From contig JAUSED010000003.1 of NCBI GenBank assembly GCA_030650425.1, positions 263,903-327,902 on the forward strand: a stretch of 64,000 bases of DNA, read 5' to 3'. Shown here piece after piece: positions 29,865-52,808 of this stretch. Position 1 is the stretch's first letter, and every line of letters begins with the position of its first letter. The position numbers and the translations under genes are program-made. Source of the DNA: Candidatus Omnitrophota bacterium (GTDB lineage: Bacteria > Omnitrophota > Gorgyraeia > Gygaellales > Profunditerraquicolaceae). The notes under the pieces were generated by a model that was not told where the DNA came from, did not search any database, and worked only from the letters and a program-made list of their open reading frames with translations.

Positions 29865-29878
29865 CCTTTATTAGATTA

Positions 29879-30075
29879 ATCTTCAGGGCAGGGTGGAATT
29901 CCCGACCGGCGGTTACGCGCAAGCGCACACCAATTCATCCGATTGAATTGGGTGTTGCGCAGAAGCGCATACCAATCCTTCTTATAGGATTGGGTGTTGA
30001 GCCCGCGAGCTTCGTATATAACGGAGCAGATCTGGTGAAACTCCAGAGCCGATAGTACAGTCTAGATGGAAGGAG
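29879..30075 (+). ncRNA. FMN riboswitch (RFN element) aptamer
   Basis: Conserved RFN blocks are present: CAGGGCAGGGTGGAATTCCCGACCGGCGGT ... AGCCCGCGAGC ... GGTGAAACTCCAGAGCCGATAGTACAGTCTAGATGGAAGGA. It lies upstream of ribBA. The ORF-track ORF 29855..30055 overlaps it. Confidence 0.9.
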
Positions 30076-30090
30076 ATTAATAATGCTTAT

Positions 30091-34190: not shown

Positions 34191-34228
34191 AAATTCGTAG
34201 CGGACATTTAAATGTCCGCTACGAATTT
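34191..34228. repeat. perfect 38-bp palindrome (19-nt arms, no spacer) in the ribD-ribE intergenic region
   Basis: AAATTCGTAGCGGACATTT|AAATGTCCGCTACGAATTT. It shares the GGACAyTT-AArTGTCC core with other palindromes in the window and swallows the upstream ATG at 34212. Confidence 0.8.
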
Positions 34229-34238
34229 TAGAAAGCTT

Positions 34239-34811
34239 ATGTTCTCAGGCATAATTGAAGAATTAGGGATAGTAAAAAGTATTTCTCGCAAGGGCAATAT
34301 CACGCTTCTTGCAATCAATGCTGAAAAAACTTTGGTCGATACCAAAATAGGCGACAGCATAGCTGTAAACGGCGCCTGCCTTACCGCCGTAGAGATAAAA
34401 AAAGATTCTTTTACCTTTGAGGTAATGCCTCAGACTTTAAAAATTACTAATCTCGGGGCCTTAAGAATCGGGGAGAAGGTTAATCTTGAACGCAGCCTTA
34501 AGGTCGGCGACAGGATATCCGGGCATTTTGTCTTAGGCCATATTGATTGCTTGGGGATTATCCGTAAAAAAGGCTACTCTGGTGGTAATCTGGCTTTTGA
34601 AATAGCCATCCCGCCTGAATTTATTAAATATTGTCTGGCTAAAGGTTCGATTGCTGTAGATGGGATCAGCCTGACCATCGCGGATAGGAAATCCAGCGCG
34701 TTTAGCGTCTATATCATCCCACATACCCTCAAAAATACAACTTTAGGTTTCAAAGGCCCGTCAGATAAAGTGAATATCGAATTTGACCTCTTGGCCAAAA
34801 GAGAAAACTAA
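34239..34811 (+). CDS. ribE: riboflavin synthase alpha subunit
   Basis: The conserved N-terminus MFSGIIEELG begins at the ATG at 34239. The ORF-track start at 34212 lies inside the palindrome. Two lumazine-binding repeats are present. Confidence 0.85.
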   Translation: MFSGIIEELGIVKSISRKGNITLLAINAEKTLVDTKIGDSIAVNGACLTAVEIKKDSFTFEVMPQTLKITNLGALRIGEKVNLERSLKVGDRISGHFVLGHIDCLGIIRKKGYSGGNLAFEIAIPPEFIKYCLAKGSIAVDGISLTIADRKSSAFSVYIIPHTLKNTTLGFKGPSDKVNIEFDLLAKREN

Positions 34812-34925
34812 AAAAAATCCCAAAAAAACTTGAAATTAGCTAAATTTGTGTTAAACTTAAAACAATTGTAGATATTAAGCTTAGCGCTTTTGCTGGAGGG
34901 CGAAAGCGCCTGGAAAAGCAGTTAG

Positions 34926-34975
34926 AACCAGAAGGCTGTTAGATAAAAGGGTCAGCTTTCTGGTTTTTTTATTTT
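34926..34975 (+). terminator. rho-independent terminator of the rib operon
   Basis: AACCAGAAGGCTG...CAGCTTTCTGGTT stem followed by TTTTTTTATTTTATT. Confidence 0.7.
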
Positions 34976-35003
34976 ATTCCCGTCATTACGGGAGTTATCC
35001 ACA

Positions 35004-35033
35004 GGGTAGGGGACACTTAAGTGTCCCCTACCC
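35004..35033. repeat. perfect 30-bp palindrome GGGTAGGGGACACTT|AAGTGTCCCCTACCC immediately 5' of the giant-ORF RBS
   Basis: 15-nt arms with no spacer. It ends 1 nt before the AGGAGG RBS at 35034-35039 and belongs to the GGGGACA-core palindrome family. Confidence 0.8.
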
Positions 35034-35045
35034 AGGAGGCCATCA

Positions 35046-38000
35046 ATGCGTTCATTAAGAAAGGTTTTATCCTTAGCTTTAATTCTAAGCCTACTCTTCC
35101 AGCAAATCGGCTTTGCCCAGATTGCTAGCGAGTTAAATATCGCCGGTTATCTCTCCCGGATGAGTAGCAATCTCTCAGTAGAAAAATTCCGTCCCGCGCA
35201 CCTGCGTTACTTCTCCTATAATAGTCTAAATGACAACTTCAAGGTACTCTTAGATAAAGGAGACTCTCCTACCAGCAGGGGACATTTTCCGTCAGGGCTA
35301 TCAGGGAACTCTTTAAAGGAAAGTGTCCCCTGGGACAAGGCTAAGCTTCAATCCGAAACCCAAACCCTGCTTAGTTATTTCCTCATAGGCGTAACCCTTC
35401 CAGATTCTATGTTCTGGGTCAACCTACGCCCTGACTCCGAAGACCAGATCATTGACCAATACTTAGAGAAAACAGACGTAGGCAGGATTATGCTGGAAGC
35501 TGACCTCCAGCTCAAGAAAGACACCGCTCAAATGACCTCTCCAGCTACCCCTGAAGGAAGAGAATACTGGGATAGGCTCTATAAGAAAGCCGCCGACCTT
35601 TACGGCTATGACAATGTGACTATTCCCACCTTAACCCGTCCTTGGATTGTTCCGGGTGAGATTATAGTCAGAGAGTCTAAAGATAGCGCCTATATCTATA
35701 AAGCTACGCTAAAAGTTATGCTAGAGCAGGATTACCTAAAGAGCTCCAAACTCCAAGCCCTAAGTTCTCAGTCAGACTATTCTTTTAAAGATATTCGCTC
35801 TAAAGCTCTTAATGAATACTCTACCCAACTAATCAAAGAACTAATTATTCCTAAACTTACTAAAGAAGTCAACTCATCCAAAAGATACGCTCCCCTAAGA
35901 CAGGTCTATTACTCTTTAATCCTCTCCCGCTGGTTTAAGCAGAAATTCAGAGGACTCTCCAAACCAGCAGGGGACATTTTCCGTCAAGGCTCTCACGAAG
36001 CAACTCAAAGGAAAGTGTCCCTTGCCTTTGTTAATCTTATCGATACCAAAAACCTCACCAACCTCATCTCCAAAGACTCCTGGAGCAAAACCGACTACTT
36101 CAAGCAATACCAGAAGTCCTTCTCCTCAGGCGAATACAATATCCAAGAGTCGGTGTATACTCCCACAGGCCAAGTTATCCGCAGCTACTTTAGCGGGGGG
36201 ATACAGATGGATGGAGCAGGAAGCCCGATAAATAATCCAGTTGGTTTTACTAACCTTGCTGATAAAGGAGATAGATTCTACAAAATTTCCAGAGGTGCAA
36301 ATCTAATAGGGATGGAGGGAAATTTTCGCACTGGGATTAAACTTTCCGCCGGTTCGCTGGTTGAGCTAACTGTGGAAGAGAAGAATAAGGTTTTGGAGAT
36401 TAGCAGCATACTTACCGGGATAAATGAAGCTACGCTAACTAATTCCGCGAAAATTGGCGAGATTAGAGAAAAATTAGGGGAAGTTCCGCTTATGGGACGT
36501 GTTGATTACATTTTCTCTTATGTACCAGGAAGCCAGATGACTCAAATGAAAAAAGTTATTATCCAAACACGGATCAAAGTTTTACGAAATAGTATTGTGG
36601 CTGATGTAGACAAGCGTCTTTCCGAACTCCTAAAAGGATTCAGAGAGATTAAAGGGATATCTGGCTCACCGGTAGAATTGACACCGGAAGACAGGAGGCA
36701 GATAGAAGAGATCCTTGGGCCAATAGACGAAGTCAGAGGTATAACCGATTACAATAGAATATCACCTATTGAAGGTAGATTAAAAACAGAAATACCGATG
36801 CAAAAGATTATATTGTATGCTCAAGAGTTTTTAAGCCCAGACCATGATCCTTCGCCGCTTCCAGTTAATAGAAGAGTTATCTTAGCAATAAAGTCTATTG
36901 TACTGCTTAGAACCATTATCGGCGAGAGCATTAAAGAAAGCACGCTGGCAGTTACGAATGCCCGTTTTATCGAAGAGCTCGCTCAAGTACGAGCCAATAT
37001 GTCTAATGGTGTTGCTTTATTAGCGGGCTACAATACATTTATAAGTAGATTGCAATTGCCTGATGAGTTTGTACATTTGAGGCTTTTCTCCGATAGCATA
37101 ATAGAAACATTTAATCAGATTAAACAAATATTCGATGCAAAGTCCTCCAATTCTCCGGTTAACCCGAAAGAATTAAAGAGGCTTGAGACAGCGATTGCCA
37201 ACGTAGCTGGTTCTATTTCTCCTGAGAAAAGAATGGAAGCTCTAGAGCGGGACTTAAAGGGTTTTCCGCTAACAGTGCTCAGAGTAAAGAAAGAGGAAAT
37301 GGAATCAAACACTGGTAATCATAACAATGATGACGCATTATATTCTGCGCTGTGTAATATTATCGCTGATAAAGAAAACCCATCAAGTCCCAATAACGAT
37401 AACCTATTAGGAGACGGTTCGATTAGGCAAAAACTCGAAAGTGTAACGCCGGCAACCGCACTAGATCGTGATGCAATGATTGCAAAAATCGAAGAATTAT
37501 CGAAAATCTCTTCTTTCTCTCTTGAAGAATATAAGAGAAGTGTGGCGAGGAATCCGGCAATAGATAAACGCAGGCGTCTTATACAAATAGAATTGTTAGG
37601 TGCGGCTATCGAAAAGAAAAAATCCAAAAATAATAAACCTGAAGCTTCCTCCGGTTCGCCGGTAGATAGGATTACAAAAGAGGAAGCCGAGGCTTGGCTT
37701 AGTCATAATATTAAGATACCAGAAAAAGTTGACTTGAACACTGGAATAGGCAATCATCCTAAGGAGTTTTCTCTTAATAAAAAAAGAATTAAAGAAGCCA
37801 TATATCCATTCTTGATGAGTTTACCAAGATCTGTTGAGCCGGAGAAGTTTGAATTTACATTTGAATTATCGAGTGTTTGGGTTTTAACGATTAGGGTACG
37901 CTATGGCGGTGAGACCAAAACAAATCCGCTAGTATTTCGTTTCTATTATCCCTATATTGAAGCTAATAAGTTTGACTCGGAAAAGTTAGCTGATGTAGAA

Positions 38001-41000
38001 AACACAATCATAGAAGAGATAAAAAGGGATTTTGTTTATAGGATTTTTGGACATTTCTACGGTGAACCATGGAAGCCTATTGAGGAATTTATCCAGATTT
38101 CTTGGAACAAGACAAATGATAACAGCAATTTGTATTTAGGAAAACAGTATCAAGGAGGCTTGAAGCCCGACTCATTTTTAGCTAAAGGCTCTCATGTTAA
38201 AAAGTATGGAAACGATACGCCAGTCGTTGATTTTATGGAGCTCTTGGATGCTTGGTTACAAGAAGGAGAGGCGGTATTTAGTGTTCCTGAAGCTACGCCT
38301 GAAGAGACAAGAAAGCAGGCAGAGCAAAATTTAGCATTTTTTAAGCTATACTTTAATAGAGATCTATCTGGTTCGCCGGATCAAAAATTCAACAGCTCGC
38401 CGATAGAAAAAAGCGATTCAAAACCAATAATATTGATTGTTGATGATGACGAAAATATTAGATGGATGATTAAAAATGAATTAAGGAAACAAGGTTTTGA
38501 GCCGGATCAATTATTGGAGGCTGAAAGCGGAGAAGAAGCCTTGAAAATATTAAATAAACAAAGAATAGACCTTGTTTTAAGTGACTATAACATGCCGTCC
38601 GGGATAAATGGGGGAGAGCTTTATGTGAAGATGTCAAAAAGCGCTGCCCTAAACAAAATCCCTTTTGTGATGTTAACCGGTGATCCAGATTCTGTAAGGA
38701 AAGAGCTTAAGCTTCCTGAGGGTGTACAGATACTTAACAAGTTCGCATCATTCGCGGAAGTTATTTACCCTGTTATGTTATCATTAATAAATGACAAGGA
38801 AAGAAAACCAGCCGTCGGCTCGCTGACTGAAACTTCTAAAGAAAATAATCCAGTCAACTCGCCTATTTTTAAAACGAAATTTTCAGCTAATGAGTTTACT
38901 AGTAAGGAAGGATTAATACAAGACCTGAAAAAGCTCGACGGGTTTCTTAAGGGAAAGGAAGGAAATGGCGAGCTTGTTTTTACGCTCAAATGGCTTGAAT
39001 GGATTAGTTTGGATAGAAGTTGGCGTGAAGGATTAATTGATTTACCAGATACTTCGGATTTCATCCTTAACTTCGCTAAATTTATTCATTTGTATTTATC
39101 AGAAACAGGGATAGGGAATGTTTCTCTTAAAGATAAACTAAATATAGCTAACAAACTTTGGGTGCGCCATTTAGAATTTATTGATAAATCCGGACAAATT
39201 GTACCGCCTCACCAAGCATTTTATTCTTATCGGTTTGCCAGCGAGATTAAAACACAAGGCGAAGTTGCTCTGCGTTTTTCCGTAGCTAAATCTGCGGTAG
39301 AGAAGGTGCGTTGGGCAGTTGAAAGTATCCCTGCAATGAGGGTGCGGTTGGATACTCTGGCGTTAGATACGGGATTATCTGTTGATGAGGTTATCGAAGC
39401 GCTAAAGACTATTAACGAAAAACGGAATGATTATGAGCTTCAAGGCGATATTCTTATTATCCCGAAAGTAACAAATGATTACTTGGATTTTAGGCCTTTT
39501 AGTGAAGAAGCGCGCCGATTAGGAGAGGCCTTACAGAATTTCGGTCTTCCAGAAGATGTAACGGTGATTATGCAATCATCAGGGTTGACTCTTGAAGGAT
39601 TGAAGTTTGCAGTGCAAGAGGCTAATGCTGTCAAAATATATAGGCCAACACTTGAGGTGCGCGATAGTAAGCTTACCTTTTTTACATACGATAGTAAAGG
39701 CAATCCGGTATATCCTAGTGCAGAGATGCCGTTAATAGTTCAGAGGAATACCAGCGATTCTGCTCTAGCCAGCTCGGCGATGCAGGTGAAGGATGCAGGG
39801 TTACCGGGTTTGCTTGGAGAAGATTTTAGCAAAGCGGATGTTAAAGTAATGCCGTTTGTGCTTAGTCGAGATGAAATTCCTGGTAAAGTTTTTAGTATTA
39901 TAGAAGCAACGTTAAAAAACCTTGAGAAGGATTTTCGTGGAATTTTGATTGAAAGACGAAACGGCCTGCTTTACGCTATAGACAAAGAATCCCAAGGAAC
40001 TTTACCAATTGATAAATCTAAGTCCATTACAACTCTGAAAGAAATTCTAGAAGCGGATTATTCTGAAAATCAACAGTTTACTTTTGTATGGATAAGTACT
40101 TCTGCTTATTCTGCGTTGGAGATAAGGCCTAAATATCCGTTGGCCGCCGGTTCGCCGACAACACTTGAGGAAGCGGTAAAATTTTTGCATTTTTTACAAG
40201 TGAATTGGATGCGTTTTCAGATTAGAGATGAGGAATCTTTTAAATATTTTGAGGAGCATGATAATAAGTTAGATAATGTAGATAATAGAATAGTCTATTC
40301 TGTGCCTCCAAATAAAAATGTAGCTGGGGGTTTTAATTTCGTAGTTAAAGATAGCGTAGAGCCGGAACAATTATTGGAGCGAGTTTTAAATTTCATAAAC
40401 GGAAGAAAAATCGTATGGAGCAATGAAAAAGAGCAGAAGGAAATCGCAGAAGGAATTACCACTAAGCTTAGTTCCTTAAGGCAAGCCAGCTCGGCGATGC
40501 AACAGGTTGAACCGGTTAACGTGAGAATGGTTGAAGCTGAAGAAGGGATAATAATACGAGGGGAGGTTGTAGTTCCGGCTGAAGTGAAAAACGGTCAATC
40601 AATAATGAGAATAAGGGTAGCAGGTGAAAATAGCGTGATTGTACTATTTAGTCTTCAGTTTTATAAGGGTACTGCCTTTGTGAGCGAAATCCTAGGAAAA
40701 CGAACATTTCTTTCGGGAACACCAAAGATAGAGTCACATGCCATAAAGTTTGATACAATTAAAGACATCTTGACAGTAGAGACACGAGATCCATATTGGA
40801 ATGGATATGAATATAAAGCAGATGTTATTTCATCCAGCTCGGCGGTGGAATTAAAAGAGGGGAATAAGTACTCTTTTTATGGGAAATACGGTTTATTGCG
40901 AGGTTGGGAGATAAAAATAAATAAACTTTTTGAAGACGGTAGTATTGAAGTAACGTTGGTTGAGCCCGAAAGCAAAGCAGGGAAGGCGTCCATAAAGAAC

Positions 41001-41525
41001 GTAGTTTTCAGGAATAAAAATGATCTGCAGGGATTTGTGCGAGAGTTGAGTGCGTGTGAACTTGGCACTTATCAGGTTGAGCCGTTACCAGTAACAGTAT
41101 TTACAGATTTTTTTAGGAATGCTGAAGATTTTGCGCGACGTTCCTCTGTTAGTTCTGCGATAGATGAGACTCAGAAGACTCCCGGCGGTATCGACTTCCG
41201 CGTTCTGCCTATGACTATCCAGCCAATGGGAAGCTTTACCGGTTTAAACTTTAAGCTGCCACAGCTAACGCAAAGAGAGTTGGCCAAGATGAATATTGAT
41301 TTAGAGATACAGCAGATTCAGAATATGGCTTCCTCCGGTATCCTTCCTTCTGGCCGGCGAATCAAAGAATTAATCGCCGCTTGTGTGCAAAAGAAGGAGA
41401 TTACTGCCCGCGCGGATAATCTCTTGCTCTGCCTTATAGATATCTGTAAGCTGGAAGAAGAGAACGCCTATGATACCGAGCCGGAGATGAAAGAGGCATT
41501 GGTAATAGTAGATTCAGTTAGCTAA
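35046..41525 (+). CDS. giant secreted/envelope protein of unknown function (2159 aa) with N-terminal signal peptide and an embedded CheY-like receiver (REC) domain
   Basis: Uninterrupted 6480-nt ORF, far beyond chance in AT-rich DNA. Strong AGGAGG RBS. N-terminus MRSLRKVLSLALILSLLFQQIGFA-QIA looks like a cleavable signal peptide. Residues ~1126-1245 (KPIILIVDDDENIRWMI...DLVLSDYNMP...VMLTGDPD) match a response-regulator receiver domain. No other domain recognised. Followed by a strong terminator. Confidence 0.8.
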   Translation: MRSLRKVLSLALILSLLFQQIGFAQIASELNIAGYLSRMSSNLSVEKFRPAHLRYFSYNSLNDNFKVLLDKGDSPTSRGHFPSGLSGNSLKESVPWDKAKLQSETQTLLSYFLIGVTLPDSMFWVNLRPDSEDQIIDQYLEKTDVGRIMLEADLQLKKDTAQMTSPATPEGREYWDRLYKKAADLYGYDNVTIPTLTRPWIVPGEIIVRESKDSAYIYKATLKVMLEQDYLKSSKLQALSSQSDYSFKDIRSKALNEYSTQLIKELIIPKLTKEVNSSKRYAPLRQVYYSLILSRWFKQKFRGLSKPAGDIFRQGSHEATQRKVSLAFVNLIDTKNLTNLISKDSWSKTDYFKQYQKSFSSGEYNIQESVYTPTGQVIRSYFSGGIQMDGAGSPINNPVGFTNLADKGDRFYKISRGANLIGMEGNFRTGIKLSAGSLVELTVEEKNKVLEISSILTGINEATLTNSAKIGEIREKLGEVPLMGRVDYIFSYVPGSQMTQMKKVIIQTRIKVLRNSIVADVDKRLSELLKGFREIKGISGSPVELTPEDRRQIEEILGPIDEVRGITDYNRISPIEGRLKTEIPMQKIILYAQEFLSPDHDPSPLPVNRRVILAIKSIVLLRTIIGESIKESTLAVTNARFIEELAQVRANMSNGVALLAGYNTFISRLQLPDEFVHLRLFSDSIIETFNQIKQIFDAKSSNSPVNPKELKRLETAIANVAGSISPEKRMEALERDLKGFPLTVLRVKKEEMESNTGNHNNDDALYSALCNIIADKENPSSPNNDNLLGDGSIRQKLESVTPATALDRDAMIAKIEELSKISSFSLEEYKRSVARNPAIDKRRRLIQIELLGAAIEKKKSKNNKPEASSGSPVDRITKEEAEAWLSHNIKIPEKVDLNTGIGNHPKEFSLNKKRIKEAIYPFLMSLPRSVEPEKFEFTFELSSVWVLTIRVRYGGETKTNPLVFRFYYPYIEANKFDSEKLADVENTIIEEIKRDFVYRIFGHFYGEPWKPIEEFIQISWNKTNDNSNLYLGKQYQGGLKPDSFLAKGSHVKKYGNDTPVVDFMELLDAWLQEGEAVFSVPEATPEETRKQAEQNLAFFKLYFNRDLSGSPDQKFNSSPIEKSDSKPIILIVDDDENIRWMIKNELRKQGFEPDQLLEAESGEEALKILNKQRIDLVLSDYNMPSGINGGELYVKMSKSAALNKIPFVMLTGDPDSVRKELKLPEGVQILNKFASFAEVIYPVMLSLINDKERKPAVGSLTETSKENNPVNSPIFKTKFSANEFTSKEGLIQDLKKLDGFLKGKEGNGELVFTLKWLEWISLDRSWREGLIDLPDTSDFILNFAKFIHLYLSETGIGNVSLKDKLNIANKLWVRHLEFIDKSGQIVPPHQAFYSYRFASEIKTQGEVALRFSVAKSAVEKVRWAVESIPAMRVRLDTLALDTGLSVDEVIEALKTINEKRNDYELQGDILIIPKVTNDYLDFRPFSEEARRLGEALQNFGLPEDVTVIMQSSGLTLEGLKFAVQEANAVKIYRPTLEVRDSKLTFFTYDSKGNPVYPSAEMPLIVQRNTSDSALASSAMQVKDAGLPGLLGEDFSKADVKVMPFVLSRDEIPGKVFSIIEATLKNLEKDFRGILIERRNGLLYAIDKESQGTLPIDKSKSITTLKEILEADYSENQQFTFVWISTSAYSALEIRPKYPLAAGSPTTLEEAVKFLHFLQVNWMRFQIRDEESFKYFEEHDNKLDNVDNRIVYSVPPNKNVAGGFNFVVKDSVEPEQLLERVLNFINGRKIVWSNEKEQKEIAEGITTKLSSLRQASSAMQQVEPVNVRMVEAEEGIIIRGEVVVPAEVKNGQSIMRIRVAGENSVIVLFSLQFYKGTAFVSEILGKRTFLSGTPKIESHAIKFDTIKDILTVETRDPYWNGYEYKADVISSSSAVELKEGNKYSFYGKYGLLRGWEIKINKLFEDGSIEVTLVEPESKAGKASIKNVVFRNKNDLQGFVRELSACELGTYQVEPLPVTVFTDFFRNAEDFARRSSVSSAIDETQKTPGGIDFRVLPMTIQPMGSFTGLNFKLPQLTQRELAKMNIDLEIQQIQNMASSGILPSGRRIKELIAACVQKKEITARADNLLLCLIDICKLEEENAYDTEPEMKEALVIVDSVS
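35271..35330. repeat. ~60-nt hairpin element copy A inside the giant ORF (GGGGACATTTTCC - 27-nt loop - GGAAAGTGTCCCC)
   Basis: ACCAGCAGGGGACATTTTCCGTCAGGGC...AAAGGAAAGTGTCCCC. A near-identical copy lies 692 nt downstream in a different reading frame. Confidence 0.7.
35963..36021. repeat. ~60-nt hairpin element copy B inside the giant ORF
   Basis: ACCAGCAGGGGACATTTTCCGTCAAGGC...AAAGGAAAGTGTCCC. The first 24 nt match copy A except for one substitution, but it is read in a shifted frame (PAGDIFRQG vs SRGHFPSG). Confidence 0.7.
38421..38790 (+). other. receiver (REC/CheY-like) domain segment within the giant ORF
   Basis: KPIILIVDDDENIRWMIKNELRKQGFEP...EEALKIL...RIDLVLSDYNMPSGINGGELYVKM...IPFVMLTGDPDSVRKEL. 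Acidic pocket DDD, phospho-acceptor Asp (LVLSD) and conserved T/K positions are present. Confidence 0.7.
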
Positions 41526-41528
41526 AGG

Positions 41529-41567
41529 AAAAGGTGACAGTCACGCACTTCGTGACTGTCACCTTTT
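41529..41567 (+). terminator. strong hairpin terminator downstream of the giant ORF
   Basis: AAAAGGTGACAGTCACG-cactt-CGTGACTGTCACCTTTT: a 17-bp perfect stem flanked by A4/T4, so possibly bidirectional. Confidence 0.75.
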
Positions 41568-41583
41568 CTAGTGAGTTAAAAGA

Positions 41584-41604
41584 CGGGGACAGTCCCCATT
41601 TTTT
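41584..41604 (+). terminator. short GC hairpin GGGGAC-A-GTCCCC followed by T6 (secondary terminator / GGGGACA-family palindrome)
   Basis: ACGGGGACAGTCCCCATTTTTTC. The arms match the GGGGACA repeat family. Confidence 0.4.
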
Positions 41605-41611
41605 CTAATTA

Positions 41612-41640
41612 TTGCTAACCCAAATAATTTCTGGTATACT
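41612..41640 (+). promoter_or_regulatory. sigma70 promoter TTGCTA-17-TATACT for tRNA-Pro
   Basis: TTGCTA at 41612-41617 and TATACT at 41635-41640, 12 nt upstream of the tRNA 5' end. Confidence 0.55.
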
Positions 41641-41652
41641 AATTTATTAATT

Positions 41653-41729
41653 CGGGGCGTGGCTCAGTTTGGTAGAGCGCTTGGTTCGGGACCAAGAGGT
41701 CGACAGTTCAAGTCTGTCCGCCCCGACCA
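41653..41729 (+). tRNA. tRNA-Pro (anticodon CGG)
   Basis: Cloverleaf with acceptor CGGGGCG/CGCCCCG, D-arm GCTCAGTTTGGTAGAGC, anticodon stem CTTGG/CCAAG with loop TTCGGGA (CGG), T-arm GGTTCAAGTCT and an encoded CCA. Confidence 0.9.
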
Positions 41730-41731
41730 AT

Positions 41732-42007
41732 ATGATGAAGAAACAAGCGCACGTATATTATTCCGGACAGGTGCAGGGGATTGGGTTTCGTTTTACTGTT
41801 GAGCGGCTTGCCGAAGAGTTGGGTGTAACCGGCTGGGTGAGTAACCTTGGCGACGGCAGAGTGGAGTTACGCGCCGAAGCCAATGAAGATAAGCTTAAAG
41901 ATTTCCTTGCGCAAATCAGCAGTATTTTTAGCCGCTATATTCAGGATGTGGATGTCAGCTGGGAGCCGGCAACAGGAGAGTTTAAGGATTTTGGGGTAAG
42001 ACTTTAG
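41732..42007 (+). CDS. acyP: acylphosphatase
   Basis: 91 aa from the ATG at 41732 (MMKKQAHVYYSGQVQGIGFRFTVERLAEELGVTGWVSNLGDGRVEL). The ORF-track N-terminal extension from 41669 overlaps the tRNA and is rejected. Confidence 0.85.
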   Translation: MMKKQAHVYYSGQVQGIGFRFTVERLAEELGVTGWVSNLGDGRVELRAEANEDKLKDFLAQISSIFSRYIQDVDVSWEPATGEFKDFGVRL

Positions 42008-44525
<2,518 letters not shown>

Positions 44526-44529
<4 letters not shown>

Positions 44530-45146
44530 TATTAGAAACTATTTCCGTAGGCTCGTTGGAAGTTAATTGCTATATTCTGGCGCAAAAAGAAAATTCCCGG
44601 GCGATCGTCATTGATCCGGGAGCCCAAGCCCGGAAGATCAACAAGGTTTTGGATAAATTTAAACTAAAGCCCGCCTTGATTATTCATACACATGGGCATT
44701 ATGACCATATCGGCGCGGATAATGAATTGGGTGTCCAGGTTTACGCGCATAAACTCGACGCGCCGTTATTAAAGGACGCGATGTTGAATATGTCGGGTTT
44801 GTTTAGCTTGCCTTATACGGTTAAATCTGAGATTAAATTACTTGAGGATAATCAGCTTATCGAGTTGGATGGAGTAGAGCTCAAAGTTTTGCATACTCCC
44901 GGGCATACTGCCGGAGGAATTGCTTTAGTGATGCAAAAGCCGGAAAAAGGCATAGCCTTTACCGGAGATACTTTGTTTTGCCATGGTATCGGAAGATCAG
45001 ATTTAGCTAGCGGTAACCAAGCCTTGTTGATTAAGTCTATAAAAGAGAGGCTATTTACTCTACCCGATGATACTAAAATTTATCCCGGGCATGGGAAGTC
45101 TTCTTCAATAGGAGAAGAGAAGAAGAACAATCCCTTCTTGTCTTGA
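44526..45146 (+). CDS. MBL-fold metallo-hydrolase (glyoxalase II-like)
   Basis: 206 aa. HTHGHYDHIG motif plus downstream His/Asp ligands. Confidence 0.8.
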
Positions 45147-45866
45147 GTGATTGCGAGTTCCCGCCGAATGTTTATAGAAAAAAATAACTTATCCGAGGTT
45201 TTCTCCGGCATTGCCCCATACTACGATCTATTAAATCATATCTTAAGCTTTAATCGTGATAAGTTATGGAGGATGGAGTTTATAGCTACGGCTGGAATCA
45301 AAGAAAATGCGAGGATCTTGGACCTTTGCACCGGAACCGCGGATATCGCTATTGAATGCGCTAAAAGAAAGAACGCTTGTCAGGTATTCGGAGTTGATTT
45401 TTCAGAGGAGATGTTAAAACAAGCTAGAGATAAAATAAATAGATTAGGCTTAGAGAAACAAATCTATTTGATTAAGGCCGATGTTTTTAAGCTTCCGTTC
45501 CATTCCGATTTCTTCGATCTGGTTTCTATAAGTTTTGGTTTAAGGAATCTTATAGATTATTCTAAAGGCATGGAGAAGATGGCAAATATGTTAAAAAAAG
45601 GCGGGAAGGTGATTATTCTTGAATTTTCTCCGCCTCTGGATAATGCAGCAGGTAGGGTTTATGATTTTTATCTTAAAAAAATGGTCCCTTTAGTTGCGCT
45701 TATCTGTGGAGGTTCAACCGCTGCCTACAAATATCTTTCTTCATCAATCAGCGCATTTCTTTATCCCAAGCAAATTTTGAATTGCATGGAATTAGCAGGT
45801 TTAAAAAATTTATCTATGAAAAAAATGTGCCTTGGGGTAGTTAATGCCTATTATGGAGAAAAGTAA
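45147..45866 (+). CDS. ubiE: demethylmenaquinone/ubiquinone C-methyltransferase UbiE/MenG family
   Basis: 239 aa. N-terminal FSGIAPYYDLLNHILSFNRDKLWR is typical of UbiE, plus a class-I SAM MTase motif (LDLCTGTAD). Confidence 0.85.
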   Translation: MIASSRRMFIEKNNLSEVFSGIAPYYDLLNHILSFNRDKLWRMEFIATAGIKENARILDLCTGTADIAIECAKRKNACQVFGVDFSEEMLKQARDKINRLGLEKQIYLIKADVFKLPFHSDFFDLVSISFGLRNLIDYSKGMEKMANMLKKGGKVIILEFSPPLDNAAGRVYDFYLKKMVPLVALICGGSTAAYKYLSSSISAFLYPKQILNCMELAGLKNLSMKKMCLGVVNAYYGEK

Positions 45867-46824
45867 TGGAAAAGAAGATAACCTTATCTTAGGAAGGGAG
45901 TTATTGATGAGATTCTTTAAAGAAGTAAAAGCATGGATTCTACTTTCCCGGTTACCATTTCATCTTGTGGGCATATTGCCTTTTATAACCGGATCCATCC
46001 TTTATCTAAAAATAACGAAGACATTTAATTTTCCCGTGTTTCTTTTGGGCGCTATTGGAGTAGTATTGATTATGCTCTCTACTTATTATAACGGAGAGAT
46101 TCATGATATCGAAGAAGATCGCCTCTCGGTAAAGCTGGAGAAAAATTTTTTTTCCGCAGGAAGTCAAGTGCTTGTGGATGGTTTAATTTCTTCAAAGAGA
46201 GTTAAATTAGTCAGTTATGTTGCGATAGGAAGCGCATTTTTTATAGGATTATTGCTTCAGTTTTATTATAAAACCGGCCCTTGGACTATCCCCTTGGGTA
46301 TTACCGGCATAATCACGGGGTTTTACTATTCCAAACCACCCTTTCGCTGGGTAAAAAGAGGGGTGGGTGAATTATTGATAGGTTATAGTTATGGCTGGCT
46401 TCCGGTGGCGGTTGGTTTTTATCTGCAGGCAGGGTTCATTCATCCTCTTGCGCATTGGATTTCTTTACCGATTGCCTGCTCAATCTTTAACGTCATACTG
46501 ATCAATGAATTTCCCGACTATCCGGCGGATATGCAGGTTAACAAAAATAACTTAGTCGTCAAATACGGAAAAGTAAAAGCCACAGCTATTTATATAGCAG
46601 CTACGATAATAGGAATAACTTCATTTATTATTTCTTTGACTAAAGGATTACCGCTAATTACCGGATTATTTTATACACCAATTGGTATTCTTTCTTTCGT
46701 AGCTATATGGATGGTGCTGGAAGGAAGGTTTAATGATCATTGCTTATTGGAACGGACGTGTTTAATTACGCTCTTGATTAATCTGGGCACTTGTCTTGTA
46801 TATATAATAGGGCTGCTTGTATAA
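45844..46824 (+). CDS. UbiA-family polyprenyltransferase (MenA-like?)
   Basis: 326 aa with 8-9 TM helices and Asp/Glu-rich motifs YYNGEIHDIEED and NEFPDYPADM. Exact substrate is unclear. Confidence 0.75.
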   Translation: MPIMEKSNGKEDNLILGRELLMRFFKEVKAWILLSRLPFHLVGILPFITGSILYLKITKTFNFPVFLLGAIGVVLIMLSTYYNGEIHDIEEDRLSVKLEKNFFSAGSQVLVDGLISSKRVKLVSYVAIGSAFFIGLLLQFYYKTGPWTIPLGITGIITGFYYSKPPFRWVKRGVGELLIGYSYGWLPVAVGFYLQAGFIHPLAHWISLPIACSIFNVILINEFPDYPADMQVNKNNLVVKYGKVKATAIYIAATIIGITSFIISLTKGLPLITGLFYTPIGILSFVAIWMVLEGRFNDHCLLERTCLITLLINLGTCLVYIIGLLV

Positions 46825-46827
46825 TCA

Positions 46828-48048
46828 ATGAAAAATAAGTTATGGAAATTCCCCCTTTCCCGTATTAGCTGGCCCCCGAGTTTATTGATCCGGCAATTAG
46901 GAAGCATATTTTTGTACGCTCATTTATCCAATTGGCGATTTTTTGGAAAATGGATGTGGAATAATAGTTTTCGCTCTATACCCATTGCAGCAGGGGCAAA
47001 AGGCATGGGTTGTATTGGTTATCCGGATCATCCTGCCTGGGAAGTTACCGCGCGTTGTAATTTAAAGTGCCTGCATTGCCATGTAGGCGCGCCAGAGGAG
47101 GAGCAGAAAGAGCTGACAACCGCGGAGGGTAAGAAGCTCATCGAAGAGTTAAGAAAGATAAATGAATTCAGAATGTTGGTTTATACCGGAGGAGAGCCTT
47201 TAGTCCGGCAAGACCTCTTTGAACTTTTAGATTATTCAGCAAACTCGGGTTTTATTAATGTAATCGCTACTAATGCCACGCTGATTACAAAGAAAGTCGC
47301 GCAGGAATTGAAGAAAAGAGGGGCCAGAGGAGCGGCTGTAAGCATTGATTCCCCGGATTCACTAATTCATAACAAAATTCGTAATCATGAAAATGCTTTT
47401 GACCTTGCATTACAAGGGATTAAAGCGCTGGCTGAGGAGAGCATACCTTTACAAATAAATGTTACAGTGATGGAATACAACTTTGAATCTTTAGAGGGAT
47501 TATTGGAGCTGGCCGAAAGTTATAAAGCGATAGTTGTGTTAATCTATCAACTAATTCCAGTGGGCAGGGGTGATGCAATTAGGAGTGCCTCTTTAGATAT
47601 GCAGCAAAACGAGACTTTACTCAAATTTATTCAAAGCAAGCAAAGAGATATCTCTGCTATTCTAGAGCCGGTTGCCGGCCCGCAATATTGGCCGTATTTG
47701 TTCACCATGAAGAAGAATGGAGGGTTTTTGAAGAAATTAGGAGCATCTTTTTTTCATGGATGCTCAGCAGGCGAGGGTTTTGTATATATCAAAGCTAATG
47801 GCGATGTTTGGCCGTGTCCTTTTATTAATATTAACGCGGGAAATGTTCGCGAACAATCTTTTCCAGATATATGGAATAAGAGCGAAGTTTTTCTGCGATT
47901 AAGGGATCGGGAAAACTTACTTCAGGGGAAATGCGGAAGATGTGAATATAAGCGCATGTGTGGCGGCTGTAGGGGAAGGTCTCTGGCGCATAACGGTGAT
48001 CTTTTCTCAGAGGACCCGTCATGTTTTATCAAAGTTCCCAAAATGTAA
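46828..48048 (+). CDS. radical SAM enzyme with C-terminal SPASM/twitch domain
   Basis: 406 aa. CxxxCxxC at ARCNLKCLHCH and a C-terminal cysteine cluster (C...CPF...CGRCEYKRMCGGCRG). Adjacent to the UbiE/UbiA-like genes. The N-terminal ~60 aa may be over-extended. Confidence 0.8.
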   Translation: MKNKLWKFPLSRISWPPSLLIRQLGSIFLYAHLSNWRFFGKWMWNNSFRSIPIAAGAKGMGCIGYPDHPAWEVTARCNLKCLHCHVGAPEEEQKELTTAEGKKLIEELRKINEFRMLVYTGGEPLVRQDLFELLDYSANSGFINVIATNATLITKKVAQELKKRGARGAAVSIDSPDSLIHNKIRNHENAFDLALQGIKALAEESIPLQINVTVMEYNFESLEGLLELAESYKAIVVLIYQLIPVGRGDAIRSASLDMQQNETLLKFIQSKQRDISAILEPVAGPQYWPYLFTMKKNGGFLKKLGASFFHGCSAGEGFVYIKANGDVWPCPFININAGNVREQSFPDIWNKSEVFLRLRDRENLLQGKCGRCEYKRMCGGCRGRSLAHNGDLFSEDPSCFIKVPKM

Positions 48049-48098
48049 CGCTTCAAATGAATTGCGTAGCCATTAATTCTTGGGTATAATAGTTTTAT

Positions 48099-48986
48099 AT
48101 GAAAGAGCTAATCGATACTTTCCTAAACTATCTTTCGGTCGAGCGCGGACTGGCTAATAATACGATTATTTCCTACCGCGAGGATTTAAATATGTACCTT
48201 GATTTTATCGAGAAGAGCAATGTCAGCATATTATCCAAAATATCCAAGAACAATATTACTAATTTTATGTTTGACCAGAAAGGCAAAGGAATTGCGGTAA
48301 ATTCCATTGCCCGTCGCCTCGCGGCAATCAGGATGTTTCACCGTTTTCTTACGCGCGAAAGGATCTTAAAAGATGATCCAAGTACTTTGATCGATTCGCC
48401 GAAGCTTTGGAAGAAAATTCCCGATACGCTTACCTTAAACGAAGTAGAGCTTTTGATTGCCCAGCCTAATGCGCGCAGCGCTCAGGGGGCCAGGGACAGG
48501 GCGATTCTGGAGACGCTTTATGCCACAGGAATGCGCGTATCCGAGGCGGTAAATCTGGAAAAGGATAATGTAAATTTAGATATCGGATTTTTACGCTGCA
48601 TCGGTAAAGGAAATAAGGAGCGGGTTATTCCTTTGGGGAAAAAGGCGATAGCCAGTATAAATAGATATTTAGAAACAGCCCGGGGAAAATTCCTGAAAAA
48701 TAAAGAGTCGGAGTTCTTGTTTATCAGCCGTTCCGGCAAAAAAATATCCCGCCAATCGTTTTGGAAAATTATTAAGAAATACGCTAAAGAAGCGCGTATA
48801 AAGAAGCCGATCAAGCCGCATACTTTGCGGCATTCATTTGCCACCCACTTGTTGGAGCGCGGGGCGGATTTACGTTCGGTGCAGGAGATGCTCGGGCATT
48901 CGAATATTTCAACCACTCAGATTTATACGCATATAGATAAAGACAGGCTGAAGAATATACATAGACAGTTTCACCCAAGGCCATAA
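48099..48986 (+). CDS. tyrosine recombinase XerC/XerD family
   Basis: 295 aa. N-terminal SAM-like domain and catalytic R...HxxR...Y (HTLRHSFATHLL...TQIYTH). Housekeeping context with no flanking repeats. Confidence 0.85.
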   Translation: MKELIDTFLNYLSVERGLANNTIISYREDLNMYLDFIEKSNVSILSKISKNNITNFMFDQKGKGIAVNSIARRLAAIRMFHRFLTRERILKDDPSTLIDSPKLWKKIPDTLTLNEVELLIAQPNARSAQGARDRAILETLYATGMRVSEAVNLEKDNVNLDIGFLRCIGKGNKERVIPLGKKAIASINRYLETARGKFLKNKESEFLFISRSGKKISRQSFWKIIKKYAKEARIKKPIKPHTLRHSFATHLLERGADLRSVQEMLGHSNISTTQIYTHIDKDRLKNIHRQFHPRP

Positions 48987-49004
48987 AAATAATGGATAGG
49001 TAGG

Positions 49005-50324
49005 ATGAAAGAATATTTAGAAAAAATTCCAAAAGAGCTTCAAGAGTTGATTAATAAGGCGCGAGATCTTGCCGCTAAGGAGAGTTTTAAGGTCTATCTG
49101 GTGGGCGGCTTTGTACGCGATTTGATCTTAGGGGTTAAGAATTTGGATTTGGATATAGTTATCGAAAATAACGGAATAAAGTTTGCCGAAGCTTTTGCGA
49201 ATTCCCTGGGAGCCAAGATTACCGTTCATAAACAATTCGGTACAGCTACGGTTTTTGTAAATCCGGATCTAAAAATTGATGGTTCGACTACGCTCACCAT
49301 CAATCCTGAGCGAGTGAAACGAGTCGAACGGATTGATTTTTCTAGCGCAAGATGCGAATTTTACCCAAAGCCTGCTCATTTGCCTGTAGTTAGCCCCGGT
49401 TCCTTAAGGGATGATTTATTCCGCCGGGATTTTACGATTAATGCCATGGCCATAGATTTAAATGACGGGAGGCTCCTAGATTATTTTGGCGGCCAAGTTG
49501 ACCTAAAAAATAAAATTATCCGTATCTTGCATCCTTTAAGTTTTATCGATGATCCAACGAGGATTTTACGGGCAATCCGTTTCGAACAAAGATACAGCTT
49601 TAAAATGGAGCCTAAGACACTAAGCCTGTTAAAAGAAGCAGTAAAAATGAATCTTTTAGGCCGGGTGCATCCTCACAGGTTACGCGATGACTTAATCCTG
49701 ATTCTGAAAGAAAGAAAGCCAATTAAAGAGCTAAAGCGCTTGGAGGAATTAACAGGATTCAGTTTTATCCTACCGACTATGGCCGTCTCCAGAAAAACCT
49801 ATTTATTTCTTATGGTACTTGAGAAGGAAATCAAATGGTTTAATATAAGTGACTCCCGGCGGAGGCCATTGGATATTTGGTTGATTTATCTCATGGGTTT
49901 ACTTGATTCTTTGGATGAAAAAACAGTGAAGAAGATATGCGGGAAATTCGGCTTACGTAGAGGGGAGGAGAAGAGGCTATTAAGTTATAAGCAGTTTAAA
50001 CTTAAAGAGATTAAAGATTTGAGTAAAACTAAAATGAAGCCGTCAAAGATCTACGCATTATTGGAGCCATTAAGTTATGAAGCAATAATTGCCTTAAGGG
50101 CTAAGTATAAGAATCAAATATTTAGACGTAATCTAGCGGATTTTCTGGAAATTTATAACGGTATTCGGATTTTAGTTTGCGGTGATGACTTACGGTGCTT
50201 AGGCCTTCTGCCCGGGCCCAGATACCAGAAGATTTTCAGTCTGGTTTTAAATGCCAAGCTTAACGGTGAAGTCAAAACTAAAGATGAAGAGTTATCTCTG
50301 ATTAGGGGGTTGTTAAGAAAATAG
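49005..50324 (+). CDS. cca: tRNA nucleotidyltransferase (CCA-adding enzyme) / poly(A) polymerase family
   Basis: 439 aa. Head-domain GGFVRDLILG...DLDIV and an RxxRFxxR tail motif. Confidence 0.8.
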   Translation: MKEYLEKIPKELQELINKARDLAAKESFKVYLVGGFVRDLILGVKNLDLDIVIENNGIKFAEAFANSLGAKITVHKQFGTATVFVNPDLKIDGSTTLTINPERVKRVERIDFSSARCEFYPKPAHLPVVSPGSLRDDLFRRDFTINAMAIDLNDGRLLDYFGGQVDLKNKIIRILHPLSFIDDPTRILRAIRFEQRYSFKMEPKTLSLLKEAVKMNLLGRVHPHRLRDDLILILKERKPIKELKRLEELTGFSFILPTMAVSRKTYLFLMVLEKEIKWFNISDSRRRPLDIWLIYLMGLLDSLDEKTVKKICGKFGLRRGEEKRLLSYKQFKLKEIKDLSKTKMKPSKIYALLEPLSYEAIIALRAKYKNQIFRRNLADFLEIYNGIRILVCGDDLRCLGLLPGPRYQKIFSLVLNAKLNGEVKTKDEELSLIRGLLRK

Positions 50325-50333
50325 GAGTTTTCT

Positions 50334-50720
50334 ATGTCCAGACAAGAAAGAATAGCTGAGGCGATTAGGCAAGAGGCGAGCCTGATTATTCACGATAAAC
50401 TCAAAGACCCGCGTTTAGGGTTTACCACTATAACTAGGGTTGAGGTTACGCCGGACTTAAGATACGCTAAGATTTTCTTCAGCGTATTGGGGAATGAGGA
50501 ATCCTACAAAAAGACCAAGGATGCCCTGGATTCCGCTTTAGGGTTTGTGCGTAAGTTGGTTGCCCGGCGGCTGAATTTAAGATTCGCTCCCGAAATCGCT
50601 TTTTATGATGATAGGTCCACGGAGTATAGCGTGCGTATAGAAGAGGTTCTCAATGAAATAAAGGAGCTTGATGGAGAGAAAAAGCCTAAAAAAGGTCGTC
50701 GCGGAAATAAAAAAGCATAA
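50334..50720 (+). CDS. rbfA: ribosome-binding factor A
   Basis: 128 aa. RQERIAEAIRQEASLII...TITRVEVTPDLRYAKIF, with a basic C-terminal tail. Confidence 0.9.
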   Translation: MSRQERIAEAIRQEASLIIHDKLKDPRLGFTTITRVEVTPDLRYAKIFFSVLGNEESYKKTKDALDSALGFVRKLVARRLNLRFAPEIAFYDDRSTEYSVRIEEVLNEIKELDGEKKPKKGRRGNKKA

Positions 50721-51651
50721 GCGTTTTTTGATCAGCGTTCATACCAGTCCCGAGGGAGATGCTTTAGGGTCGGAGTTGGCCATTTATTATTTACTGAGAA
50801 AGTTAGGGAAGCAGGCAGTCATTATCAATGAAGATCCTTTGCCGCAAGAATATAGTTTTTTCCCGGGTAAGGAGAATTTAAGAATTTATAAACCGGGTTT
50901 AAAAGAGATTGATTTTGATTGTATGGTTATTCTTGATTGCACGGATTTAAGCCGGATCGGAGAGGTGCAATCATTAAATAAGGGGAATAAGCCGGTTATT
51001 AACATCGATCACCATATAAGCAATAAGCAATTCGGGACGGTCAATTTGGTCGAACCCTATGCATCTTCGGCTTCTGAGCTGGTTTTTAATCTTTATAAAG
51101 AAATACGCGTGCCTTTTGATGAGGATTCGGCTATACTCTTGTATACCGGTATGCTTACGGATACCGGCTCATTCCGTTATTCCAATACTTCAAGCTCGAC
51201 CCATAAAGCCGCGGCAGAATTATTACGTTTTAATATTAATGCCAATCAGGTTTATAAAAATATTTACGAAAATATTCCTTTTAGTGATATTCAGATATTA
51301 ACTAAAACGCTAGCGCATATTCATAGAGAGAGCGCCGGAAGCATCGCGTGGGTGGAGGCGCGGGCAAAATTATTAAGGCATAAGAAATTATCTTTCGATC
51401 TGACCGATCATATCTTGGGTTTTCTACGGGCGATAAAAGGTACTCAGGTAGCGGTGTTATTCAAAGAAAATCTTGGCGTAAGAAACGAGATCCGGGTAAA
51501 CTTGAGGTCAACGGGTTTAGCCGATGTGAATAAAGTCGCCTTAGCCTTCGGCGGGGGAGGTCATAAAACCGCTTCCGGGTGCACTGTTAGCGGTAAGCTC
51601 GCGGATGTACGCAGAAAAGTCATCGCTAAAATCCGGGAGGAATTAGGATAG
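50671..51651 (+). CDS. nrnA: bifunctional oligoribonuclease / pAp phosphatase NrnA (DHH-DHHA1)
   Basis: DHH motif INIDHHISN and DHHA1 GGGGHKTASG. ATG at 50671 after an AAGGAG RBS; overlaps the rbfA tail by ~50 nt in another frame. The track's 50668 is an in-frame TTG. Confidence 0.85.
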   Translation: MERKSLKKVVAEIKKHKRFLISVHTSPEGDALGSELAIYYLLRKLGKQAVIINEDPLPQEYSFFPGKENLRIYKPGLKEIDFDCMVILDCTDLSRIGEVQSLNKGNKPVINIDHHISNKQFGTVNLVEPYASSASELVFNLYKEIRVPFDEDSAILLYTGMLTDTGSFRYSNTSSSTHKAAAELLRFNINANQVYKNIYENIPFSDIQILTKTLAHIHRESAGSIAWVEARAKLLRHKKLSFDLTDHILGFLRAIKGTQVAVLFKENLGVRNEIRVNLRSTGLADVNKVALAFGGGGHKTASGCTVSGKLADVRRKVIAKIREELG

Positions 51652-51709
51652 CTTAAGGGGACACTTTCCTACACGTGTTTACTACTTGTTGGAAAGTGTC
51701 CCCTTAAGC
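51651..51709. repeat. GGGGACA-family palindromic element (19-nt perfect arms, 21-nt loop) between nrnA and ribF
   Basis: GCTTAAGGGGACACTTTCC-tacacgtgtttactacttgtt-GGAAAGTGTCCCCTTAAGC. It starts at the nrnA stop codon and has no U-tract. Confidence 0.8.
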
Positions 51710-52771: not shown

Positions 52772-52797
52772 GTGGAGTAAAGTGGTGTAAGGTGGAA
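52772..52797 (+). promoter_or_regulatory. MraZ operator: three direct GTGG repeats spaced exactly 10 bp apart
   Basis: GTGGAGTAAA-GTGGTGTAAG-GTGGAAGG between the -10 and the mraZ RBS. This matches the known MraZ-box arrangement (direct GTGGG/TGGGN repeats with 10-bp periodicity). Confidence 0.6.
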
Positions 52798-52808
52798 GGA
52801 GCTAAGCC

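Follow-up and report, generated by a model that had tools for sequence, protein, structure and literature searches.

Repetitive extragenic palindromes (REPs) and bacterial interspersed mosaic elements (BIMEs) have been shown to act as mRNA decay barriers or processing structures. The palindromic elements of Rickettsia (RPEs), which measure about 100-150 bp, are tagged by CGTC and are confined to that genus, lie in-frame in coding genes and are kept as surface-exposed peptide segments; we know of no transposase dedicated to them. Bacterial MITEs (miniature inverted-repeat transposable elements) such as Correia/NEMIS and Nezha are non-autonomous, have inverted-repeat ends, are co-transcribed with their neighbours and form RNA hairpins, and some of them sit in-frame. 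Within the GTAG-tagged REP superfamily, which by definition carries GTAG unpaired at the hairpin foot, members have already been reported in the Planctomycetes-Verrucomicrobia-Chlamydiae (PVC) superphylum, and intragenic REPs have precedents, including different REPs at about one site of recB in two Xanthomonas species (PMC3733652). Here we analysed a stretch of 64,000 nucleotides from a Candidatus Omnitrophota contig (JAUSED010000003.1, positions 263,903 to 327,902; the whole stretch is henceforth the window), in which six palindromes lie in and around a gene for a 2159-residue protein (the giant gene) and beside riboflavin genes. We conclude, with a probability of about 0.62, that these palindromes belong to a single superfamily of dispersed repeats, short, polar and hairpin-forming, which is native to Omnitrophota, with relatives in Planctomycetota and in a small number of further phyla. 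The hairpin family is previously undescribed, its kind is already known (REP/RPE-like), and strict REP membership is left open.

The palindromes and the giant gene, in order along the window, are as follows.

34191-34228, + strand: 38-bp perfect palindrome of the short GTAG...CTAC class, with GTAG-CGGACATTT and AAATGTCCG-CTAC as the halves of its core, in the ribD-ribE spacer.
35004-35033, + strand: 30-bp perfect palindrome of the short class, with GTAG-GGGACACTT and AAGTGTCCC-CTAC as its halves, in the 5' untranslated region (UTR) of the giant open reading frame (ORF).
35046-41525, + strand: giant gene, encoding a secreted protein of 2159 residues with an Omnitrophota-specific N-terminal domain that holds both insertion hot spots, and with a central receiver domain.
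35259-35332, + strand: in-ORF copy 1, a degenerate half-site GGAGACTCTCC (35259-35269) and a 57-nt hairpin (35276-35332).
35950-36024, + strand: in-ORF copy 2, a degenerate half-site GAGGACTCTCC (35950-35960) and a 57-nt hairpin (35968-36024).
41585-41597 (to 41604 with its T-run), + strand: mini-palindrome GGGGACAGTCCCC, then ATTTTTT, 3' of the 18-bp terminator hairpin of the giant gene.
51651-51709, + strand: long-loop copy with perfect 19-nt arms GCTTAAGGGGACACTTTCC and a 21-nt loop, at the junction of a DHH gene and ribF.

These palindromes take three forms, namely three long-loop hairpins (two of them in the giant ORF, the third at the junction of the DHH gene with ribF), two perfect GTAG...CTAC palindromes and the single GGGGACAGTCCCC. 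The arm GGGGACAYTT(TCC) is common to five of the six, and GGGGACAYTTTCC is the arm of the three long-loop copies. A first-pass annotation of this DNA had placed all six palindromes correctly and had grouped them by a GGGGACA/GGACAyTT core, which is indeed common to five of them; the true arm is longer, as in the long-loop copies, and the in-ORF hairpins are not the perfect palindromes that it described and have the extents given above. In-ORF copy 1 consists of CAGGGGACATTTTCC, a 27-nt loop and GGAAAGTGTCCCCTG, its 15-nt arms including one G·T position, and copy 2 likewise has 15-nt arms and a 27-nt loop, the sense strand showing two G·U positions. Both core motifs are enriched in the window: GGACAYTT occurs 11 times where 3.1 are expected (0 of 100 shuffles reach 11), and the 12 occurrences of GGGGACA, against 3.7 expected, are reached by no shuffle. 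When the 64 kb were searched with relaxed pairing (10-mer core, at most 2 mismatches per arm, gap 0-45), exactly five hairpins were returned, about one weak pair being expected in shuffles; all five lie between 34.2 and 51.7 kb and four of them inside 1.8 kb. As RNA, all the window hairpins are very stable, with folding energies between -26 and -40 kcal/mol and z values as low as -8 (-25.7 kcal/mol and z -8.1 for 34191-34228; -40.3 kcal/mol and z -7.7 for 51651-51709). Only 41585-41597 is followed by a U-run, while the other five palindromes, two of them ORF-internal, are without one; the grouping thus holds against unrelated terminator hairpins, the alternative by which the first-pass annotation had proposed that it might fall.

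The family extends well beyond the window. Among one-genome-per-species contigs, the exact pattern GGGACAYTTTCC-N5-35-GGAAARTGTCCC was found in 66 genome stretches, where our own estimate for uniform sequence puts the chance expectation at about 0.5. Omnitrophota account for 43 of these stretches, from about 16 assemblies, with 18 loci in the metagenome-assembled genome STB_56; the rest comprise Planctomycetota (7 loci), Slackia (3), Burkholderiales (3) and single matches elsewhere. Metagenomes contain at least 120 stretches with the same pattern, so that the copy census proposed in the first-pass annotation yields many further copies in related genomes. IMG/VR gave zero matches to either search pattern, and a viral origin was rejected on this ground. 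In STB_56, at least 10 copies have loops that are 84-100% identical, and the DNA 60-160 nt away from them is at background similarity. The same genome carries arrays of the 13-mer arm at a 26-nt period, for instance in locus L029 (1432-1610), where an AT-rich loop is surrounded by 3 forward and 4 reverse arms. Single 13-mers are absent: in the window and the loci, exact arms always occur in inverted pairs or arrays. Most external copies are not spanned by a long ORF. The hairpins match no Rfam family, with only generic sub-threshold hairpin matches appearing in E-value mode, and in the searchable literature the motifs turn up only as unrelated primers.

The 12-nt arm is also found in multi-copy hairpins of unrelated phyla, including Gemmataceae (L021, L024 and L058), Slackia (L008, L050 and L063), Burkholderiales (L010 and L028) and soil contigs (L068-L168). 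Their loops differ, being an 11-nt TAGGARTTTGC, a 5-nt YCTGA, a 13-nt loop, or a ACACCNGRGGGT loop with conserved flanks. This sharing of the arm across phyla may be due either to a recogniser that spread horizontally or to convergence. In L030 (1-77 and 491-542), a 23S rRNA gene is followed by a member of the family about 400 nt beyond the gene's 3' end.

Copies were oriented by their arm wobble before the anatomy of the unit was compiled. On the sense strand the canonical unit reads (N)AG-GGGGACAYUUUCC, a 23-28-nt loop and GGAAAGUGUCCCC-CU, with a total length of 51-59 nt. Outside the arm, A-G pairs with C-U, and the foot of the long-loop copies is NNAG (A in 49/73, G in 52/73). The loop is polar: it opens with G in 56 of 73 copies, continues with U (T) in 45 of 73 and has an A-rich end. 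A KCUAU loop core is common to the subfamilies, and GTAG opens the loop in 16 of 19 STB_56 copies. The short form is a perfect palindrome made of GTAG-SSGACRYTT and AARYGTCSS-CTAC, of which six are known (window 34197 and 35006, L018, L033, L049 and L190); all six have the GTAG foot paired with CTAC, and the palindrome of L190, GTAGGGGGCACGGCATGCCGTGCCCCCTAC, is a compensatory A>G/T>C variant. Composite copies in L040, L062, L074/L116 and L150 are bracketed by GGGACWGTCCC, and these brackets tie the sixth window palindrome, GGGGACAGTCCCC, to the family.

The hairpins have a strict relation to the direction of the genes around them. Position 8 of the arm is either a C-G pair or a T·G wobble, T-A occurring only in GC-rich contigs from outside the Omnitrophota. 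In co-directional contexts the strand with the wobble coincides with the sense strand every time (36 of 36); over all callable contexts, de-duplicated and with crude ORF calls, it does so in 62 of 70, and in divergent contexts it matches the nearer downstream gene. In one subfamily the loop contains an inner stem whose G·U pairs form only in the sense orientation (-11.6 versus -2.9 kcal/mol); such inner-loop RNA structure is strong in that subfamily only and weak in the window copies, with p = 0.017 for sense versus antisense overall. As far as sequence can tell, this polarity points to an RNA or single-strand constraint. Since gene orientation co-varies with replication direction, it could also be explained at the level of single-stranded DNA. 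The distance from the preceding stop codon to a hairpin is 5-110 nt; the following start codon is often 12-26 nt away, its Shine-Dalgarno sequence (at 4-7 nt) coming directly after the hairpin. The 35004-35033 palindrome is placed likewise, directly abutting the Shine-Dalgarno AGGAGG (35034-35039) of the giant ORF (ATG 35046). That at 34191-34228 begins 17 nt past the ribD stop and ends 10 nt ahead of ATG 34239, which from comparison with L180 is most likely the ribE start, rather than an ATG internal to the palindrome. The first base of the 51651-51709 copy is the last base of the DHH-gene stop codon, and the ribF ATG lies 17 nt downstream.

Comparison of orthologous sites, a check that the first-pass annotation had put forward, revealed that individual copies are polymorphic or replaced by others. 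At the DHH-ribF junction, where the window has a long-loop copy, L190 (RibF 83% identical) bears a GTAG-class palindrome, in which the TAG of GTAG can double as a stop codon. The same junction is empty in L191 (RibF 82%) and in L192-L194 (74%), the two genes lying 22, 9, -4 and 10 nt apart. In the ribD-ribE spacer, the site of the 38-bp palindrome in the window is occupied in L180 (RibD 85% identical) by a long-loop member of the family. The 30-bp palindrome in the giant-gene 5' UTR is missing from the otherwise alignable leaders of L060 and L035 and is therefore an insertion. In-ORF site 1 is filled in the window, L187, L060 and L044 and holds a different hairpin in L035; in-ORF site 2 is filled in the window, L187 and L035 and has another insert in L060. 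Among the matches listed, both in-ORF inserts are missing from most of 120 homologues, and site 2 is a 12-residue baseline loop in 71 of 115 homologues and carries diverse inserts in about 34, many of which are translations of other palindromes. No target-site duplication was found at the filled/empty pairs (DHH-ribF, 5' UTR and in-ORF), and no direct repeat extends beyond the palindrome. The clustering at the giant gene that the first-pass annotation had pointed out is thus real, consisting of two insertion hot spots in the N-terminal domain together with copies in the UTRs; the proximity to riboflavin genes is incidental, with four of the five relatives having an empty DHH-ribF site. In L190 (1150-1190) and L191 (2195-2235), the Shine-Dalgarno region of mraZ is interrupted by an unrelated perfect palindrome of 20 bp, CCTGCCTGCCGGCAGGCAGG, which the window (52790-52810), L192 and L193 lack. 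Insertion of short perfect palindromes seems to be frequent in these genomes.

The two copies inside the giant ORF constitute a 62-nt direct repeat, 84% identical, whose members lie 692 nt apart. This spacing is not a multiple of three, so the copies are read in different frames, copy 1 as SRGHFPSGLSGNSLKESVPW and copy 2 as AGDIFRQGSHEATQRKVSL, each 57-nt hairpin accounting for 19 codons. The pair is a nucleotide element rather than a protein repeat. In an AlphaFold model of residues 1-420 (76-sequence alignment, mean pLDDT 82), the inserts (about residues 79-97 and 302-328) are coil with pLDDT of about 55, between confidently modelled helices and strands. The peptide KGLSPKGTVP, a translation of the mini-palindrome, recurs at the hot spots of giant-protein homologues. 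We also compared codons at identical residues in an alignment of five giant-protein homologues. Arm codons were identical in 77 of 89 cases, versus 888 of 1857 (48%) in the flanks, and for the window and L187, the one unbiased pair, picked by protein and not by DNA pattern, the figures were 16 of 18 versus 54%. Arm codon identity far above that of the flanks indicates that the arms are constrained at the nucleotide level, and this constraint could come from selection on the hairpin or from conversion by other copies. Sense folding was stronger than antisense folding for both in-ORF copies (-33.9 versus -27.8 and -31.0 versus -28.8 kcal/mol).

The N-terminal domain that contains both hot spots (about 380 residues, window 35046-36305) has 408 Omnitrophota homologues, several per genome, whose downstream parts have unrelated precomputed Pfam matches (PGK, GAPDH C-terminal, enolase N-terminal, PGM, HD and HEAT). 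This distribution suggests a common module for secretion or anchoring, joined to cargo of widely differing kinds. Upstream of giant-gene homologues, a leader of about 200 nt (window 34812-34975; L060 2720-2890; L035 1530-1725) is kept despite differing upstream neighbours. It contains a promoter-like CTTGAAATT...TAAACT, a hairpin GCGCTTTTG...CGAAAGCGC and a terminator-like ACCAGAA...TTCTGG hairpin followed by T7, and it may be an attenuator-type control element. The terminator of the giant gene (41528-41568) is an 18-bp perfect hairpin made of two self-palindromic 13-mers, GGTGACAGTCAC(G/C), which resemble a GGGGACAGTCCCC symmetrically changed by G>T and C>A. At the end of the L035 homologue (6075-6135) lies a 52-bp perfect palindrome with halves AAAATGGGGTCAGAATTATTTTTTATAT and ATAAAAAATAATTCTGACCCCATTTT, the outer part of which resembles the 'AAATGGGGACA' subfamily of GC-rich contigs.

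The whole giant-gene segment of about 6.8 kb (window 34812-41601), comprising promoter, leader, ORF, terminator and the GGGGACAGTCCCC palindrome, is absent from L180 (1-215; RibD 85% and RibE 74% identical), where a tRNA-Pro(CGG) gene directly follows ribE. Homology with L180 restarts at TTCTAATTATT, immediately after GGGGACAGTCCCCATTTT, and the 41585 palindrome stands at the right edge of the segment. With the segment absent and ribE adjoining the tRNA gene, the giant gene behaves as an insertable cassette beside a tRNA gene. Pfam identified the neighbouring gene products as RibD, the lumazine-binding RibE, a DHH/DHHA1 protein and RibF, and found the receiver as the sole domain of the 2159-residue ORF; both RibF and the giant protein have close homologues annotated as Candidatus Omnitrophota. 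With Rfam 15, only an FMN riboswitch and tRNA-Pro pass the gathering threshold in the window. The riboswitch match (29875-30081) spans 207 nt versus 138 positions of the model; within it, 42 nt are duplicated in tandem (29912-29953 and 29954-29995, with 76% identity) and each of the two units is a hairpin, which makes an expanded variable stem.

Taken as mobile repeats, the copies would multiply by copy-and-insert with no target-site duplication. They would land mainly in short intra-operon spacers and occasionally, as both in-ORF copies appear to have done, as 57-nt in-frame inserts in permissive surface loops of proteins. Retained copies keep the orientation in which the fully paired hairpin, with its G·U pairs, is on the transcribed strand, and for this reason they most likely work as RNA hairpins in polycistronic mRNAs, or are at any rate under selection as such, probably as a decay barrier or processing structure. 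Mobilisation would be due to a trans-acting, hairpin-specific single-strand DNA enzyme resembling the REP-associated tyrosine transposases (RAYTs) or IS200. Such repeats are much like REPs, BIMEs and REP doublets forming hairpins (REPINs) in that they are short, mostly extragenic hairpin repeats between co-directional genes, just past stop codons, with G·T pairs in the stem, clusters of inverted units (the STB_56 arrays) and a GTAG foot in the short class. Occasional intragenic copies, differing members at one gene site, the lack of target-site duplication and the occurrence in the PVC superphylum add to this likeness. They differ from REPs in their arrays of bare 13-mer half-sites at a 26-nt period, in the absence of a RAYT from the roughly 1 Mb of flanks sampled, and in a sequence unrelated to the published R. 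baltica REP families. With RPEs they have in common in-frame insertion that leaves the host protein intact (two 57-nt inserts in a 2159-residue ORF, in loops of the model), but the unit is only 51-59 nt long, its sequence is unrelated, most copies are intergenic and the lineage is another. Like MITEs they are inverted-repeat elements that fold as RNA hairpins, some of them in-frame, but they are much shorter, lack target-site duplications and have no matching parent insertion sequence (IS) in the sampled loci.

Several observations weigh against this reading. We searched for a transposase by ORF clustering of 66 and then 186 loci and by Pfam analysis of 150 neighbours and 20 chosen ORFs, and for a RAYT with an HUH-motif regular expression and with phmmer, using E. 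coli RayT against 7504 six-frame ORFs. There was no recurrent transposase near about 190 copies and no HUH/Y1 ORF in about 1 Mb of flanks, and the RAYT/IS200-like transposase that the first-pass annotation had proposed to look for is thus unproven. RAYTs are usually single-copy, which makes this negative, from a search confined to flanks, a weak one. In the loci examined, moreover, no arm pair encloses a transposase ORF and no parent IS with matching ends was found. The best RayT match (L029:1751-1999, E 0.017) is without an HUH motif and looks like a BrnT-type toxin, and it was discarded. The Omnitrophota units of 51-59 nt, with 13-19-bp arms and a 23-28-nt polar loop, exceed classical REPs; their GTAG is paired with CTAC or internal to the loop, not an unpaired 5' tag; and a 12-nt arm common to several phyla is unusual for a lineage-specific selfish repeat. 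On fragmentary contigs the strand bias is inseparable from replication direction, the search by exact pattern inflates the apparent invariance of the arm, and the conservation of the in-ORF arms could stem from gene conversion by other copies, not from selection.

A sharper version of the mobile-repeat reading would make these elements REPs in the strict sense, that is, substrates of a RAYT, a Y1 HUH transposase whose single gene would lie elsewhere in each genome and which would bind the single-stranded hairpin and cut at the GTAG foot. The GTAG...CTAC foot on all six short-class palindromes, the GTAG at the loop opening of 16 of 19 STB_56 copies, the BIME-like clusters and the missing target-site duplications all fit this proposal, the polarity is compatible with lagging-strand-template specificity, and GTAG REPs are known in the PVC superphylum (PMC3733652). 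Yet no RAYT-like ORF occurs in about 1 Mb around the copies, GTAG is base-paired here where the family definition has it unpaired, and the foot of the long-loop copies is only NNAG; we regard strict membership as possible but tentative. The opposite proposal, that the hairpin is a functional cis-acting RNA motif and not mobile, recognised by an Omnitrophota RNA-binding protein or RNase that controls stability or translation of the neighbouring cistrons, with copies rare in origin and kept by selection, would account for the restriction of the wobble to the sense strand (36/36 co-directional contexts) and for an arm that is invariant across divergent genomes while loops drift. It also fits the copies adjoining Shine-Dalgarno sites, the constraint at synonymous sites of the arms, and the hairpin that two lineages keep between ribD and ribE, albeit of differing types. 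What makes this proposal doubtful is that many near-identical copies, and tandem arrays, lie at unrelated loci of one genome, that close relatives are empty at orthologous sites and that ORF-internal copies are read in two frames; neighbours share no gene class, and there is no Rfam match. The enrichment near particular gene classes that the first-pass annotation had raised is likewise lacking in the loci examined.

That annotation had favoured a structured repeat, mobile-element or RNA hairpin family over an operator of fixed geometry, and the spacing of 0-35 nt, the external copies and the site polymorphism bear out this preference. Its option of a shared regulator, here one dimeric protein with operators at the giant gene and the riboflavin genes, could draw on two short copies that are palindromic through their centre, one of them abutting the giant-gene ribosome-binding site; but operators have a fixed geometry in promoters, the half-sites are 0, 21 or 27 nt apart in the window and 5-35 nt elsewhere, and copies lie inside ORFs and past stop codons beside unrelated housekeeping genes. 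As the ribF-side site is also empty in four relatives, and the rib operon already has an FMN riboswitch, we hold this explanation to be very improbable. Much the same holds for DNA uptake signals, whose copies are often arranged in inverted pairs downstream of genes. The sole recurrent small neighbours of the copies are type IV pilin-like ORFs with an N_methyl motif (L026 150-5030, L079, L088 and L178), one of which has a sub-threshold ComP_DUS match (E 0.0024). But uptake sequences are marked by abundant single copies and the 13-mer is never single, the ground on which this lead was dropped; it is far sparser than DUS/USS, several phyla have the same motif, and the loop is conserved and polar, so that uptake signalling is scarcely credible. 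A coincidental grouping of unrelated GC-rich terminator hairpins is already refuted: the 41585 copy does look like a minimal terminator and the neighbouring 41528-41568 hairpin is one, but five hairpins have identical arms of 10-13 nt, hundreds of external copies have the same arms, and there is one U-run only. Finally, the hairpin might be the recognition module of a hairpin-specific enzyme other than a RAYT, or of an RNA-binding system, conserved across Omnitrophota and Planctomycetota, an idea that we consider unlikely.

If such a non-RAYT recogniser exists, it would account for the phylum-scale invariance of the 12-13-nt arm, for the polar loop and for the half-site arrays with a 26-nt period. 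The copies in the giant-gene mRNA (5' UTR, in the ORF at codons about 78-96 and 308-326, and 3' end) would then be functional RNA, for example pause or processing sites in the making of a secreted giant protein, and might also mark the boundaries of a movable giant-gene cassette. As dispersed repeats, the reading that we prefer, the hairpins bring a new repeat family to an uncultivated phylum that has been little studied, and offer a clean natural case of one nucleotide element decoded in two frames of one gene, within an N-terminal domain in which two loops repeatedly absorb palindromic DNA. Their wobble, which keeps strictly to the sense strand, can be used to tell constraints on REP-like elements at the RNA level from those at the DNA level. 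In practice, the repeats probably fragment Omnitrophota assemblies and create spurious low-complexity peptides (GHFP...ESVP and GLSPKGTVP) in predicted proteins, and they are usable as markers of strain-level insertion polymorphism.

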